Below, in pieces: positions 12,528 to 63,348 of a stretch of 64,000 nucleotides of DNA. The first letter of the stretch is position 1, and the number at the start of each line of letters is the position of its first letter. The DNA lies in NCBI GenBank assembly GCA_963848295.1, contig CAWKDB010000004.1, positions 128,001 through 192,000 on the forward strand, written 5' to 3'. The position numbers and the translations under genes are program-made. The DNA is from an uncultured delta proteobacterium. Its GTDB lineage: Bacteria; Myxococcota_A; Polyangia; Haliangiales; Haliangiaceae. The notes beneath the pieces are model-generated. The model saw only the letters and a list, made by a program, of their open reading frames with translations, had not been told where the DNA came from and did not search any database.

Positions 12528-13487
12528 TCAGGGGTTCAGGAACTCCATCAGACTCGGAGTGGAGGTCACCGTCGGCAACCGCGGCATCCCGAAGAGATCC
12601 TCGACCGTCGCGAGATACGACGAGTGGGTGAACGCGGTCGCCGACGTCATGCCCGCCGTCTTGATTCGCGGCGAGACGACGATCATCGGCACTTGGTCCG
12701 GGTCGTCGCCGTTGCGGCCTTCCGCCTCGTCCCACGTGATGAACAAGACGCCACCGTTCTTGAACCCGTCGCTCGCGAGGATCGCGGGCACGTTATTCTT
12801 GAGCCACGTGTCGGTCGTCTCGAGCGCGCCGACCGGATCGGTCGAGGGATCGTGGCCATCGTCGGTCAGGTTCGGCGTGATCCACATGTAGCGGTACGTG
12901 TTCGTCGCGAGGTCCGCGGCGAAGTTCGTGTAGTCGACGTTCGTATTGGCGCACAGGTTGTTCGCGCCCATCTGCATGTCGGTGAAGTAGAGGAACGGGT
13001 CGTGGCGCGGGGCGTACGAGCCATCGTCGGTCAGCATGCACGGCGTCGCTTCGGTCTCTTGGTACGACCGCCACTTGAGGCCGGCCGCTTGGAGCTGCGT
13101 GCCGAGGTTCATGGCGGCCGACGGGAACAGGAACGGCGTCTGCGGCTCGACATCGAACAAGCCGAAATACTGATTGTCGCCACTGATCAGATTCAGATAG
13201 TTCGGCGTCGACGGATGGCCGGTGTCCTTGTAGTTCGTCGCGAGCCCGTAGTCCGCGATCAACGAGTTGATGTACGGCGCGTTCGACGACCCGACGATCT
13301 CGGCATAGTCGTGGTTCTCCAGAGGGATCGTGAAGATCGTCGTGAAGCCAGAATTCGCGGGCGAGTCGATGGAAATCGAGTCGCTGCCATTGTGAGAGGC
13401 GTCGGGTTGTTGCGTGTCGTCGCCGTTCGGATTCATCCCGTTCGAGCCGCACGCGGCCAGGCCGATCATGAGCGAGATCTTGCGCAT
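12528..13487 (-). CDS. Phosphoesterase/acid phosphatase family lipoprotein
   Basis: LAAC lipobox; ENHDY, HPSTPNY, RHDPF, TPNLTDDGHD, ITWDE, HSSYLATVE. Confidence 0.88.
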   Translation of the reverse strand: MRKISLMIGLAACGSNGMNPNGDDTQQPDASHNGSDSISIDSPANSGFTTIFTIPLENHDYAEIVGSSNAPYINSLIADYGLATNYKDTGHPSTPNYLNLISGDNQYFGLFDVEPQTPFLFPSAAMNLGTQLQAAGLKWRSYQETEATPCMLTDDGSYAPRHDPFLYFTDMQMGANNLCANTNVDYTNFAADLATNTYRYMWITPNLTDDGHDPSTDPVGALETTDTWLKNNVPAILASDGFKNGGVLFITWDEAEGRNGDDPDQVPMIVVSPRIKTAGMTSATAFTHSSYLATVEDLFGMPRLPTVTSTPSLMEFLNP

Positions 13488-18746: not shown

Positions 18747-19748
18747 TCAGGGCGTCGCGTCGCCGGTCACCGTCGCCGCGGGCGTTGCAGCGGCCGGCGC
18801 GGCGGCATGGACCGTCTCTGCATAGTGGCGCACGAAAGCGATCTGATCGATCAGCGATAGACCGAAGGTCTTGCCTTCCGCGATCGCAGCATCGGCCGTC
18901 CAGCCGTCGACCGCGATGCGATAACAGGCGACCGCCGTGCCGGTGCGGCCTTTGCCGGCCTCGCAATGGACGTACGTCGGCGGATGCGCCCGCGCGAACG
19001 AGATGAACTCGTTCATCTGCTCGACCGTCGGCGGGGCGTTGTCGAGGATCTCGCAGTTGTAGTGCTCGATTCCGTACTTATCGGCGAGCGCTTTGTCGTT
19101 CGTGTGCTCGAGGCACAGGCTCACGACGCCGCGTATGCCTTGCGCCTTGAGCGCCTTCATCCCGTCGTCGTCGAGACGCGAGCCGCGATACAGGCCACCA
19201 TCGACTCGCGCTTCGTACGCCTTCACCGGGTACTTGAGCCCGGCGAGCTCGGCGACGCCGAGGATCTCACCGCCGACTTCTTCGACTTGCTCGGCGGCAT
19301 CGAGCAAGCCGTGGCCGATGTCGCCGAAGACACCGCGCTTCTTGTCGTCGGTCGGGGCCGCGATTGGTTCCGTCGGCGCCGCTGTGGGTGCGGCGACAGC
19401 CGGCGCAGACGCCGACGCCGGTGGAGGAGTGGCTGCGGTCGCCGCGGGCATGGCTGCCGTTGCCGCGGGCGCCGTTGCAACGGGCGCGGCTGGCGCTTGC
19501 ATCGCGGCGACGACGGACTGCACGTACCCGTTGCCGAGCTTCTGTTGAAGCAGAAGCAGCAGCGCGTCATGGTCCGCAGGGAAGCTGTTGACGATCGACG
19601 CGGTGAGAGAGGGCTCGGGAAGGCCCGGATGCGTTCGCAAGAAGTAGCTCAGCACGGCCACGCCGGCTCCGACCTTGGGCTCGGGCGCGTGCTGTTGCAG
19701 CGAGTCGCCGACCGGTGCAGCTGTGGTCGCGACGTCGAGCGAGGACAT
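18747..19748 (-). CDS. Tyrosine/dual-specificity phosphatase with unnamed N-terminal domain and Ala/Pro linker
   Basis: LYRGS, HCEAGKGRTG (HCx5R) P-loop; no signal peptide. Confidence 0.9.
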   Translation of the reverse strand: MSSLDVATTAAPVGDSLQQHAPEPKVGAGVAVLSYFLRTHPGLPEPSLTASIVNSFPADHDALLLLLQQKLGNGYVQSVVAAMQAPAAPVATAPAATAAMPAATAATPPPASASAPAVAAPTAAPTEPIAAPTDDKKRGVFGDIGHGLLDAAEQVEEVGGEILGVAELAGLKYPVKAYEARVDGGLYRGSRLDDDGMKALKAQGIRGVVSLCLEHTNDKALADKYGIEHYNCEILDNAPPTVEQMNEFISFARAHPPTYVHCEAGKGRTGTAVACYRIAVDGWTADAAIAEGKTFGLSLIDQIAFVRHYAETVHAAAPAAATPAATVTGDATP

Positions 19749-19855
19749 GAGCGATCATAGGCGGTCCGAACTACGGATTGCACTGTGTTTATCGGTTTTT
19801 TACGAACCAGCGGTTGTGGGGCATCCGTAACGTCGCTGTGCTCGTGCTCGGGCTC

Positions 19856-21094: not shown

Positions 21095-21270
21095 TTGTCG
21101 CCAACTGTTGGTTCAGTCCTCACATGTAGGACAAGCGATTACCGGCGTGACCTATATATTGGTGTCTTTATCTTTGGTATTCGGTGACTTGTTAGTGACA
21201 GGTCAGTGGATTTGACTTGAACGATTCGATCGAGCGCGCCTAACGTGCGCCGGTCATGTCGTTCGATAAG

Positions 21271-22203
21271 ATGCACCGCTTGCTGATTCCGTGCTTACTC
21301 GCGGCTGCTTGCAGCTCGGCTCCGCATGGCGATGGGGTCGGCTCTGACGCGAAACCGCCGTCCGACGCCAAGGGCGACAGTGGTACGACGACATCGCCGA
21401 TGTTGTTCAAGTTCGGAATCGTCGGGGACACGCGGCCGGCCAACGAGGACGACACCCCGCACTATCCGACCACGATCATCACGAAGATCTGGGCCGACAT
21501 CGCCGCGGCGTCGTGCGACTTCGCGGTCAGCACCGGCGACTACCAGTTCTCGAGCCCGACTGGGAGTCAGGCAGGCGCGCAGCTCGATCTCTATGTCGCC
21601 GCCCGACAGCAATTCTCGAAACCACTGTATCCGGCGATGGGCAATCACGAGTGTACCGGCTATACCGACTCGAACTGCGGTACCGGCAACGCCGACGGCA
21701 TCACGAACAACTACACCGCGTTCACGTCGAGGCTGCTCGACCCGATCGGCCAGACCAAGCCGTATTACGTCGTGAGCTTCGCGGCTCCGGACCAATCGTG
21801 GACCGCGAAGCTCGTCGTCATCGCGGCGAACGCGTGGGACAGCGCGCAGTCTGCCTGGCTCGACACCGCGCTGTCACAGATGACGACGTATACGTTCATC
21901 GTGCGCCACGAGGATTCGTACGCGAACACCGCCCCGGGCGTGACGCCGTCCGACACGATCATCGCGAAGTACCCCTACACGCTGAAGATCTTCGGTCACA
22001 CGCATACGTACGCGCACTACCCGAGCGAACACGACGTGATCTGTGGCAACGGCGGCGCGCCGCTGACGTCGGGCACGAACTATGGCTACGGGATCGTCGA
22101 GTTGCTCGCGGACGGCAAGGTCCAGTTCACCGACTACGACTATTCGAACGACTCGGTCATTGACCAATTTCGCCTCAACGCTGACGGGTCTTCGGCGCCG
22201 TGA
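21271..22203 (+). CDS. Calcineurin-like metallophosphoesterase lipoprotein
   Basis: LAAAC lipobox; GDTR, TGDY, MGNHE, FGHTH. Confidence 0.88.
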   Translation: MHRLLIPCLLAAACSSAPHGDGVGSDAKPPSDAKGDSGTTTSPMLFKFGIVGDTRPANEDDTPHYPTTIITKIWADIAAASCDFAVSTGDYQFSSPTGSQAGAQLDLYVAARQQFSKPLYPAMGNHECTGYTDSNCGTGNADGITNNYTAFTSRLLDPIGQTKPYYVVSFAAPDQSWTAKLVVIAANAWDSAQSAWLDTALSQMTTYTFIVRHEDSYANTAPGVTPSDTIIAKYPYTLKIFGHTHTYAHYPSEHDVICGNGGAPLTSGTNYGYGIVELLADGKVQFTDYDYSNDSVIDQFRLNADGSSAP

Positions 22204-60085: not shown

Positions 60086-62707
60086 ATGGGGGTTGGGGAG
60101 AAGATTGGCGCTGGCGCTGGACCATCCGGCGCGGAGCGGTCAGGTCATCCGGAGGGCGCCGCATCCGACGGCACCACCGTAGCAGCGGTGAGCGCGTTGC
60201 TCGCACGCAACGGCTCGCCGATGGAGGTCGCCGACATTCTGTCGAGCCATCCGCAGGATCAAAGCGCGGTGATGCTGCTGCTCCACACCACGCGCGGGAA
60301 CAGCTACGTCCAGCAGGTCACGACCGCGATGGGGAGCTCGAAGCGCACCTCGTCCGCTCATGATCCGATCGACGGGAGCCCAGCCGCGCAGCTCGCGCTC
60401 GATCGTCCGCCGCGATCGCCGAACGAACGGAAGCACGAGCACGTCGCTCTCGCCGAGCATTCGATCGAGGCGCTGCGACGATCAGTCACCGGTACGCTCG
60501 GCACGCTGATCCCGGGGTACGTCGCGGCACGCAACAACCTCGATACCGCGTCGGTCGCCGAGCTTGGAGGCCGACTGCTCGGCGCCTTCAATGTCATGCA
60601 CGGCGCCAAGTGCGCGTTCGACAAGCTCGCGCCCGCGCAACAGAGTGTCCCCGGTGGAACTGCGGAGAGCGATCTCGCAGCCGCAGGGCGTGAAACGTCG
60701 TTGCACGCGAACGCCGATGCGATCGCGAACCTGATCGGTCCGACGGACATCGCGATCGCCAGGACGCTCACTCCGCACGTGTTTCGCGGCACTGAAGTCG
60801 CGGGCCACGAGGTCAGCGTTCAGCTCGTAGGCGACATGGGCACCGACACCGCGAAGCTCGCGGGCGAGCTCGAGCGCACGATCGACATGCTGTCACTCGT
60901 CGAGGAGCTGAGCGCGTCGCTGAAAGGCAAAGGTGGTCTCGAGCGTTCGAAGCTGGATGCCGGGCGCTACAAGATCGCCGCGTGGGCCGGGCGCCCGCTC
61001 GATATCGCGTTTCTTCGGGCCGCGCTCGGTCGCGTGTGGGACGTCTACGACGCAACGGCGGAGGGGCCGATGTTGGAGAAACCCAGCGATGCGCTCGAGG
61101 AGGCGACCAAGCACGCCGCGCATACCGGATGGCTCGCCGACACGGGGCGGTTCGACCTCAATACGGCGTGCACGATGATCGAGGGCGGCATGGCCGAGGC
61201 CGCGCTCGGCGATCTCTACACCGCAGATCCGGACACGCGCGCGAGACTGCTGATCGAGATCCAGCAGCGCGGGCTGTTCGACAAGTTCTGCGACGCGTTC
61301 GGATGGCAAGAGCTCAAGCAGCTGCACGACAGCCTCGGCTACGGCTTCTCCGACCTCCGGCACGCGCTCCAGGCGAAGTTCACAGGCAAGGGCAAGTTCG
61401 GACCGACGTACGACAGCGAGTGGGAGAACCATGACAGCTCGCTGCACCATCTCGTCGGGAGCGTTCCCGGTGTCGGCGGTGCCCTGAACTTCGCGCTCGA
61501 TGTCGGCACGTTCGGGTTCAACTCGAGCTACGGCAAGGCGCTCGATGACGAGTCGGAAGGGCTCATCTCGTCCGACGAAGCGCGTGCCGAGCGCCACAAT
61601 GCGTGGGCGCGGATGGCTGCCGTCGCCATGGTCTCGACGATCACCGGTGGCGTCGCCGACAAGTTCGTCCGCGGCGGAGCCGCGACGGTCTCGACCGCTC
61701 GGGCGATCGCCGGCGGCGCGGCCGCGGGCGGCTTCGTCGGGACGAGCGCACTGCTTGCGTCGGACACTTACAACGTCTACGGGGCCGGCACGCAAAGCTC
61801 GCTGTCATCGCCATCGGCCTACGTCGAGACCGCGCTGATCGGCGGCTTGGTCGGCGGCGCGATCGGTGGGGTGACGAGCGGCTTGAGTCGCCGAGCCGCC
61901 GAATACACCTCCAACTCCGAGGTCGGCGCTCGGCCGGACGTCGCAACGGCAGCGCCATCGGTCGGAGCCGAACCGGTTGTGGTTGAACCACGGATCTCGG
62001 CCGCCGCGCGAGCCTCGGGCCTCGACCTCGGTGCCCTCACGCCCGTTCAGCGCACGCTGCTCGAGGCCGCGGACGGAGCGCTCGAGCGCGGCAACATCTC
62101 CGAGAGCGCGAAGCTGTTCGACGAGCTAGCGAACGGGGGTGTTCCGAAGGAGACCGTTGCCACGCTAGAGAACGAACTTGCGCGAACGCTAGGCAAGACG
62201 CCGCCGAGCGTGTACCGGGATCCCAAAGCAACGCTCCCGAACGGCGCGGAGGTTCCGCCGTCGGTTTGGGGCGGCGTCAAATACTACGGGACCAGCGAGA
62301 TTCCTCCAGAGATCGCCTTTGCCGACGGATTTCCGGGGCGAGGCAGCGACACCGATCTCTTGCAGCATTCCCAAGGAGCTCTAGACCGGGCATTCCGCGG
62401 CACCACCGAATACCTTGTCAGTCCCGATGGACAAGCTGGCGCGGGCGCGTGGGCGGAGGAGGGCGGCTGGGTCTACAAGATCGACGGAACGCCGAGCTGG
62501 GACCTGAACGCAGAGCTCGAAGGCCGCGTGCCACAGTCTGACGGGAGCTTTGGCGGGAATCGAATGCACGGCGAACACGAGCATTCAGTTCTTGCGAACA
62601 TCCCGAAGGAACGCATCATCGGAGCGTTCAAGATGACTGTCGATGCGAATGGGACCCTCAGACCCGGCCCGATGATTTCGAATCCGAACTACGTACCGAT
62701 AACGTAA
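60086..62707 (+). CDS. Polymorphic-toxin-like protein: unnamed N-terminal domain, Gly-zipper hydrophobic helices, C-terminal scabin/pertussis-like ADP-ribosyltransferase
   Basis: C-terminus PPEIAFADGF..FRGTT..GWVYKID..DLN..GEHEHSV..IPKERIIG..NPNY; GxxxG helices at ~61450-61890. Confidence 0.7.
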   Translation: MGVGEKIGAGAGPSGAERSGHPEGAASDGTTVAAVSALLARNGSPMEVADILSSHPQDQSAVMLLLHTTRGNSYVQQVTTAMGSSKRTSSAHDPIDGSPAAQLALDRPPRSPNERKHEHVALAEHSIEALRRSVTGTLGTLIPGYVAARNNLDTASVAELGGRLLGAFNVMHGAKCAFDKLAPAQQSVPGGTAESDLAAAGRETSLHANADAIANLIGPTDIAIARTLTPHVFRGTEVAGHEVSVQLVGDMGTDTAKLAGELERTIDMLSLVEELSASLKGKGGLERSKLDAGRYKIAAWAGRPLDIAFLRAALGRVWDVYDATAEGPMLEKPSDALEEATKHAAHTGWLADTGRFDLNTACTMIEGGMAEAALGDLYTADPDTRARLLIEIQQRGLFDKFCDAFGWQELKQLHDSLGYGFSDLRHALQAKFTGKGKFGPTYDSEWENHDSSLHHLVGSVPGVGGALNFALDVGTFGFNSSYGKALDDESEGLISSDEARAERHNAWARMAAVAMVSTITGGVADKFVRGGAATVSTARAIAGGAAAGGFVGTSALLASDTYNVYGAGTQSSLSSPSAYVETALIGGLVGGAIGGVTSGLSRRAAEYTSNSEVGARPDVATAAPSVGAEPVVVEPRISAAARASGLDLGALTPVQRTLLEAADGALERGNISESAKLFDELANGGVPKETVATLENELARTLGKTPPSVYRDPKATLPNGAEVPPSVWGGVKYYGTSEIPPEIAFADGFPGRGSDTDLLQHSQGALDRAFRGTTEYLVSPDGQAGAGAWAEEGGWVYKIDGTPSWDLNAELEGRVPQSDGSFGGNRMHGEHEHSVLANIPKERIIGAFKMTVDANGTLRPGPMISNPNYVPIT

Positions 62708-62709
62708 CC

Positions 62710-63348
62710 ATGGCATCCGCCGACGACCTACTCGCTGAGGCTGCCGAGATCAATGCGAGCGATCCTGATCGAGCGCTAGCGCTTCGCCGTCAAGTCGCGG
62801 CTGGGAATCCCAGTATCGCCTGGTCGAAAGCGCACATGGATCTTGCGTCGAAAGACTTCGACAACGGTGATTATGCCGGTGTGATCGCGCACGCGAAAGC
62901 GGTCCTTAGTGCTCCTGCTTCGGCCGTAGATCCGGGCGCGCAGGCCGTTGCTGGGGTGATGTTGTGTGGCGAGCTTTCGAGCGGAGGCCAGGCGGTCGAC
63001 GAGGCGCTACTCGCAGCAAGCACGACAGCTGCTGAAGCTAACAATCTTCCTTATTACGCGGGGCTTGGATTCAATCACATCGCGCGACTCCATCTCGCCC
63101 GTGGCGAACGCGACGACGCGCGTTCTGCGTTGGAACGCGCTGCCGATTTGTTCGAACGCGCGCGATCGCTGAGTGCGGCAAGTGTGTTGTTGCGGCTCGC
63201 GGAGCTCGATCTCGAGGACAGCAACCGGGAAGACGCGCGCAGCCACCTCGACCGTGGTCTCGCATGGCTGTCGTCGTTTCCGGTTAGCGGCAAGAGCCTC
63301 CGGTTACTGCGCGACAAACTTCAGAAGCTGAGCGCACAGGTTCCGTAG
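62710..63348 (+). CDS. TPR-like helical protein, candidate immunity protein
   Basis: Starts 2 nt after the toxin stop; ARSALERAADLF and ARSHLDRGL TPR helices; more A/T-ending codons than neighbours. Confidence 0.65.
   Translation: MASADDLLAEAAEINASDPDRALALRRQVAAGNPSIAWSKAHMDLASKDFDNGDYAGVIAHAKAVLSAPASAVDPGAQAVAGVMLCGELSSGGQAVDEALLAASTTAAEANNLPYYAGLGFNHIARLHLARGERDDARSALERAADLFERARSLSAASVLLRLAELDLEDSNREDARSHLDRGLAWLSSFPVSGKSLRLLRDKLQKLSAQVP

Follow-up and report, generated by a model that had tools for sequence, protein, structure and literature searches.

The window analysed here, a stretch of 64,000 nt, encodes on opposite strands a phosphatase and a polymorphic-toxin-like protein (hereafter the 60086 protein, after the start of its gene) that open with the same small domain (Table 1). 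Two secreted-looking phosphoesterase genes (Phosphoesterase, Metallophos; window positions 12528-13487 and 21256-22203) are found within 7 kb of the phosphatase gene.

Table 1. Coordinates, in the window, of the two genes sharing an N-terminal domain and of their features.
Feature	Position	Strand	Remarks
Whole phosphatase gene, 333 aa	18747..19748	-	leader, domain, Ala/Pro linker, enzyme
DSP/PTP phosphatase domain (aa ~181-309)	18822..19208	-	Pfam Tc-R-P, PTP-NADK, PTP-SAK above cut-off
Phosphatase catalytic loop HCEAGKGR (HCx5R)	18945-18968	-	
Shared N-terminal domain, copy 1 (phosphatase aa 28-86)	19491..19667	-	four helices predicted
17/34-identity core of domain copy 1	19500-19601	-	
Polar, low-complexity leader of phosphatase (aa 1-27)	19668..19748	-	no hydrophobic signal stretch; from sequence
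TATGAT, -10-like hexamer	19754..19759	-	5 nt before phosphatase ATG, no Shine-Dalgarno
Polymorphic-toxin-like gene, 873 aa	60086..62707	+	leader, domain, conserved body (aa ~120-500), swappable tip
Shared N-terminal domain, copy 2 (60086 protein aa 29-85)	60170..60340	+	
ADP-ribosyltransferase-like tip (aa 728-871)	62267..62698	+	Scabin/ArtA-like
TPR-like gene, candidate immunity protein	62710..63348	+	3 nt past toxin stop; from position

The original prediction had aligned the two N-termini by hand, and the alignment was reproduced: aa 50-83 of the phosphatase and aa 49-82 of the 60086-62707 protein are identical at 17/34 positions without gaps, and the helix preceding this 34-aa core aligns as claimed. 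BLASTP detected the pair at E 2e-7 and found no further significant similarity, so that the two proteins are indeed otherwise unrelated, and neither leader holds a hydrophobic stretch, as read from the sequence, in line with the claimed absence of signal peptides. The phosphatase assignment likewise stood, as both the HCx5R loop (HCEAGKGR, aa 261-268) and a DSP/PTP family profile above the Pfam cut-off are present. That of an ADP-ribosyltransferase (ART) held in a weaker form: the tip of the 60086 protein is ART-like (E 6e-5 to ArtA, 4z9d), and a tip 57% identical to it passes the Scabin-like ART cut-off, but the 60086 tip itself has no Pfam ART match. A structure model of this tip was too poor to use (pLDDT 38) and was discarded. 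The TPR-like gene that follows is by its position a candidate for an immunity gene; no immunity-like gene was evident in the neighbourhood of the phosphatase.

Across the host genome, this ~60-aa domain, ending in L[HQ]xxxGNx[YF]VQxV, opens 10 dispersed proteins that include the phosphatase and the 60086 protein. Their genes lie on contigs C4 (2), C10 (6), C9 (1, interrupted in the assembly) and C11 (1), with the domain near the N-terminus in all. The domain copies are 21-47% identical to each other, and beyond the domain just one pair among the 10 proteins is related. To avoid circularity, the genome was also searched with a profile built from 142 sequences of other origin, which regained the same 10 members at 53.9-85.2 bits among 80,544 six-frame ORFs. 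The next score was 19.5 bits, and the best reversed-sequence decoy reached 18.5 bits. Since the outside profile finds exactly 10 of 80,544 ORFs, clear of the decoys, the match between the window proteins is not a chance one. An eleventh match in this genome (C2:1149374), internal to its ORF, was rejected because its 19.5 bits are at decoy level.

A TAnnnT hexamer occurs 4-9 nt before the start codon in 8/10 members as compared with 20/112 background genes (crudely called), and in relatives in 18/26 cases as compared with 2/13 off-frame controls. Its position just before the starts supports the chosen start codons and suggests leaderless transcripts, such as is likely for the phosphatase gene. 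Upstream of the members, no common motif or sigma-54 site other than this -10-like hexamer was found.

In public data, 338 protein clusters match the profile at E<=0.001, of which the best 150 were examined. Three repeat proteins with stretches of 8-10 bits (P0008, P0009 and P0055) were dropped. The domain begins within 70 aa of the N-terminus in 144 of the best 150 matches, and the stretch between the start of the protein and the first conserved Gly measures 26-34 aa (10th-90th percentile, 132 proteins). This leader is polar and rich in A/P/Q/G/E, and by composition and hydropathy just 3/159 leaders hold a hydrophobic window. The most conserved positions of the domain are the G (99%) and N (96%) of the motif, the next V (95%) and the preceding L (91%). 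An AlphaFold2 model of the domain has four helices (pLDDT 85). As had been predicted, no known domain matches the segment: searches of Pfam and NCBIfam gave no significant match, PDB sequences gave chance or repeat matches only, and Foldseek with the domain model returned nothing at E<=0.001. The best VIA-align result (Z 5.5, rmsd 2.7, 61 aligned) reflects a common helical arrangement, with the middle domain of FliG among the tied weak rows. The ESM Atlas gave unnamed clusters at 0.93-0.95; an eCIS_core cluster at 0.79 is a lead only. We found neither domain nor motif described in the open-access literature, and the supplementary alignments of Zhang 2012, Geller 2021 and Danov 2024 may show the GN helix.

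The proteins carrying the domain differ widely in what follows it. The C-terminal parts of 151 proteins fall into 47 clusters, whose kinds include phosphatase, ART-like, nuclease, PLD, peptidase and Fic, so that the expectation of many N-terminal matches with diverse, often toxin-like C-termini was borne out. For a Pfam scan we took 115 of the best 150 matches, leaving out 5 from the host genome itself, 3 artefacts and 27 short fragments. No housekeeping protein was among these 115, again as anticipated. Matches were obtained in 24/115, among others to PLD, CHAP, M35 and M15 peptidases, lipases, Fic, WHH nuclease, SH3, peptidoglycan-binding and DSP phosphatase domains. Because the remaining 91/115 have no Pfam domain, most homologues are to be called putative effectors. 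A constant N-terminal part joined to an exchangeable C-terminal toxin, the mark of polymorphic toxins, was found in the 60086 family and in member L005. Among 17 homologues of the body of the 60086 protein, the tips are exchanged (ART-like in 5, Ntox28 in 4, others in the rest), and the N-termini are swapped too, the domain being present in 3/17. Member L005 stands at the head of an array in which a toxin whose tip weakly matches Tox-MPTase4 (E 0.01) is followed by a small gene, an orphan Ntox28 tip, a HEAT gene, an N-truncated duplicate with Ntox28 and a second HEAT gene. Neither the HEAT-repeat genes nor the TPR-like gene behind the 60086 toxin, both candidate immunity genes, matched a named Imm family. 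Taken together, the domain is real and not yet catalogued, and it marks the N-termini of a dispersed and in part polymorphic repertoire of putative effectors.

Two fusions stand somewhat apart. One homologue (L063, G305:C53) combines the domain with DUF4157 and a ubiquitin C-terminal hydrolase, which suggests a eukaryotic target for some cargo. In the P0020 family (24 proteins), the domain precedes a beta-rich region of ~450 aa, in some members ending in a hydrophobic/aromatic residue, that looks like an outer-membrane barrel yet has no signal peptide; its atlas score against porins (0.77) is a lead only.

DUF4157, an eCIS marker found downstream of the domain in 7/115 Pfam-scanned homologues, connects the domain to the cargo of extracellular contractile injection systems (eCIS). 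P0095, one of these seven, is part of a 455-protein family with source labels from archaea, Chloroflexi and Proteobacteria, and DUF4157 is present in 116 of the 120 members listed. As the first query region from P0095 held a downstream QAKL motif, the profile was rebuilt without QAKL. HHalign matched the N-terminal module of P0095 to the domain (97.1%, E 4.9e-11, 41 columns), the domain profile scored at least 20 bits on 115/120 listed members of the P0095 family, and a profile from the P0095 module alone placed 5 of the 10 host proteins at ranks 1-5 among 80,544 ORFs. The originally proposed resemblance to the LQ-x3-GN helix of eCIS cargo is thus upheld for one DUF4157 family. None of the three profiles reached 10 bits on a Methanosarcinales DUF4157 protein (L163) with the common short form, LQxTAGNxAV, and the link to the short form is therefore by motif only. 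The genome of this archaeon (G356) has a sheath gene, and FHIPEP was not found in it.

Within the host genome, none of the 10 proteins carries DUF4157 or has it in the next gene, and all three DUF4157 ORFs lack the domain. In relatives, 40 top DUF4157 genes, from 20 domain-negative and 20 domain-positive genomes (1.7 kb windows), were scored with both profiles: 0/40 matched either, and the LQxxxGN motif occurred in one. This cargo (L121-L160) often has an APG(K/R)xT/S leader and QRK-like repeats, and such leaders are candidates for a second tag family; leaders of the GKxTL type were not found in the host genome. DUF4157 copies range from 0 to 78 per genome.

The host genome encodes the sheath, tube, spike, baseplate, terminator and AAA ATPase expected of an eCIS, in a cluster at C2:~902-934 kb with Pvc16_N, two sheaths, tubes, spike, gp25, baseplate J and FHA proteins. 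None of the 10 member genes is on this contig (C4, C9, C10 and C11 versus C2). At the end of the locus (L009, C2:901825-906412), an AAA ATPase, presumably Ycf46-like and unlike Pvc15, lies beside DUF1257 and a stand-alone DUF4157 gene, the latter conserved in 39/47 genomes. Some baseplate genes, at C2:913500-917300, are frameshifted in the assembly, through either sequencing error or decay. Orphan tube-like genes with doubled gp19 are found outside the locus (C10:71986-72921 and C10:1532808-1533716), and most genomes of the genus have three such paralogues. In this assembly (85% complete), we detected neither a VipB sheath nor Hcp of a T6SS, and neither of two Tad markers. SctR/S/U-like genes of a non-flagellar type III gate lie at C11:512114-516014, beside a ribosomal protein operon, and a SctV-like gene, near-universal in the genus, stands alone at C10:4726400-4728300, apart from the flagellar genes. 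A full-looking flagellar cluster in a myxobacterium (L072 and L073, C10:3355000-3387000: flagellin, hook, rod, rings, FlhA/B, FliF/G) was read from ORF starts, with FlhA and FliQ alone confirmed by profile.

Co-occurrence, which had been put forward as a way to find the apparatus, did not single one out, because eCIS and type III gate genes are both near-universal in the genus. The domain is present in 20/36 genomes of the same genus and 2/2 of the sister family, and with a wider profile in 27/51 near relatives (G010 counting as one domain-negative row); a draw across the phylum gave 4/301, at low sensitivity because only 17 candidates per genome were scored. One homologue is source-labelled Kofleriaceae. 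Pvc16_N was found in 23/23 domain-positive genomes and 35/36 genomes of the genus, a DUF4157 match in 27/27 domain-positive genomes (wider profile), and FHIPEP in 25/27 domain-positive genomes and 47/51 overall. The co-occurrence of eCIS with the domain thus looks necessary and is not discriminating. Neither the stand-alone DUF4157 gene nor the orphan tube genes were discriminating, and the presence of the domain was unclustered on a tree (30 rows) of the DUF4157 protein from the locus (8 changes vs 9.0 when shuffled).

With moderate confidence, we propose that this portable N-terminal domain, predicted to form four helices, tags proteins as cargo for the host eCIS; fusion and homology tie it to such cargo, and it would be a putative loading signal. 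The chances appear to us evenly balanced that leader and domain together are read by an eCIS loading factor. According to this model, whose recognition, loading and injection steps are inferences, each member gene would have a transcript of its own, in most cases from a leaderless promoter, and the gene products would remain in the cytoplasm, where the conserved GN turn, its flanking helices and the disordered leader would be recognised by the loading factor. Candidates for this factor are the AAA ATPase of the locus and the conserved, stand-alone DUF4157 protein with which the locus ends, and recognition in trans would allow cargo without DUF4157 in cis to be loaded. The cargo, unfolded, would then enter the tube and be delivered by injection to a neighbouring cell, in which the tip would act; tips that could harm the producer would be accompanied by an immunity gene downstream.

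The domain may be accessory in this process, because published loading signals are disordered leaders. It is possible, if rather unlikely, that the proteins are eCIS cargo loaded by the leader alone, the helical domain binding a chaperone, setting the point at which unfolding starts, or anchoring or refolding the cargo in the target cell. Loading of AlgoCIS requires a disordered NTD while DUF4157 is dispensable (bioRxiv 10.64898/2026.05.27.728243, accessible text), and 20 aa of Afp18 are enough, with no consensus found in the accessible part of that report (10.1101/2023.11.13.566157). Toxin bodies that occur with or without the domain, and its tandem copies in P0003, P0037 and P0095, fit such an accessory role. 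Both the tightly held length of the leader and the near-invariance of the GN pair (96-99%) across unrelated cargo are instead what is expected of a recognition surface.

The SctR/S/U-like and SctV-like genes outside the flagellar cluster raise a further alternative, improbable in our view, in which the domain would direct its proteins to an export gate of type III, needleless (T3SS*-like) or flagellar, by binding a chaperone behind an unstructured secretion signal. Type III effectors likewise have a leader followed by a domain at aa 25-90, a layout shared with the proteins described here. Such a gate would be at hand in nearly all domain-positive genomes, judging by FHIPEP, yet no FHIPEP match was obtained in two of them (G032 and G247, each with one weak copy of the domain). 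The homologous module also precedes DUF4157 in proteins that include archaeal-labelled ones, and archaea are not known to have type III systems, in keeping with the FHIPEP result for G356. T3SS* operates in prey killing by Myxococcus (PMC12075869, accessible text); the toxin-immunity arrays, for their part, fit interbacterial delivery by other routes, and the two Tad markers searched were not found in the host assembly.

Least probable of all is a non-secretory module (for self-association, or membrane or vesicle targeting) shuffled within one lineage, with proteins that leave by lysis or vesicles or work intracellularly: the restriction to near relatives, the conserved non-toxin look of the 24-member beta-rich family and of a 23-member 440-aa family, proteins of 1,400-1,560 aa, a near-stand-alone 110-aa copy and the phosphatase without an immunity-like neighbour would suit it, whereas strict N-terminal placement, fusion to DUF4157, the presence of lipases and cell-wall hydrolases that have no signal peptide, the exchange of toxin tips and the arrays with immunity genes would not.

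If the domain is an address tag, as we favour, it offers a new way to spot the cargo of injection particles, the prediction of which now relies mainly on DUF4157 or on proximity to the operon. With its clear separation of scores, a 60-aa profile yields 10 candidates in the host genome as compared with 3 DUF4157 ORFs, and hundreds of further clusters, about four fifths of those scanned being without a Pfam domain, offer new candidates for antibacterial enzymes. Being compact and mutable, the element also lends itself to loading studies that compare leader, helices and GN turn, and a role of eCIS in the predation of soil myxobacteria appears possible.

MIX and FIX are N-terminal marker domains of polymorphic toxins of the T6SS. 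These, TANFOR (PMC7073777, accessible text) and LXG/WXG likewise mark unrelated toxins at the N-terminus and follow the same logic of discovery; the present domain differs in length and motif and has no Pfam match, and, unlike in the MIX/FIX setting, no T6SS sheath or Hcp was found in the host genome. Closer are the eCIS loading sequences (PVC Pnf/Pdp1, Afp18 NtSP, AlgoCIS Cgo1/2 NTD), which also occupy the polar, disordered first 25-35 residues of unrelated kinds of cargo and have no Sec signal. These published signals have been shown experimentally and are disordered, without an alignable consensus, whereas here an alignable, predicted-folded domain, known from sequence, follows the leader. 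The accessible text of PMC11297309 states that no conserved eCIS signal sequence was detected, and the leader properties given there match the polar leaders of the domain proteins; that of the AlgoCIS report (bioRxiv 10.64898/2026.05.27.728243) describes the required sequence as unconserved between systems and provides a precedent for AAA-driven loading.

DUF4157/eCIS_core/PVC-metallopeptidase cargo (PF13699; PMC3482391 and PMC8213781, accessible text) shares the constant N-terminal module and variable C-terminal toxin, and its genes too are dispersed in eCIS-positive genomes, with some proteins bearing both modules. Unlike such cargo, none of the 10 proteins has an HExxH domain; the common part here is a small helical domain outside PF13699, which most sampled DUF4157 cargo of relatives lacks. 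In the CIS of Streptomyces lividans, a cargo without DUF4157 binds a stand-alone DUF4157 protein through its N-terminal region (Sle1/Sle2; PMC13277306, accessible text). Sle1 differs in being a 440-aa coiled coil encoded beside its partner, as compared with a 60-aa domain in genes far from the locus. The host locus ends in a stand-alone DUF4157 gene, which by analogy with Sle2, a precedent for a DUF4157 adaptor acting in trans, might have a similar function.
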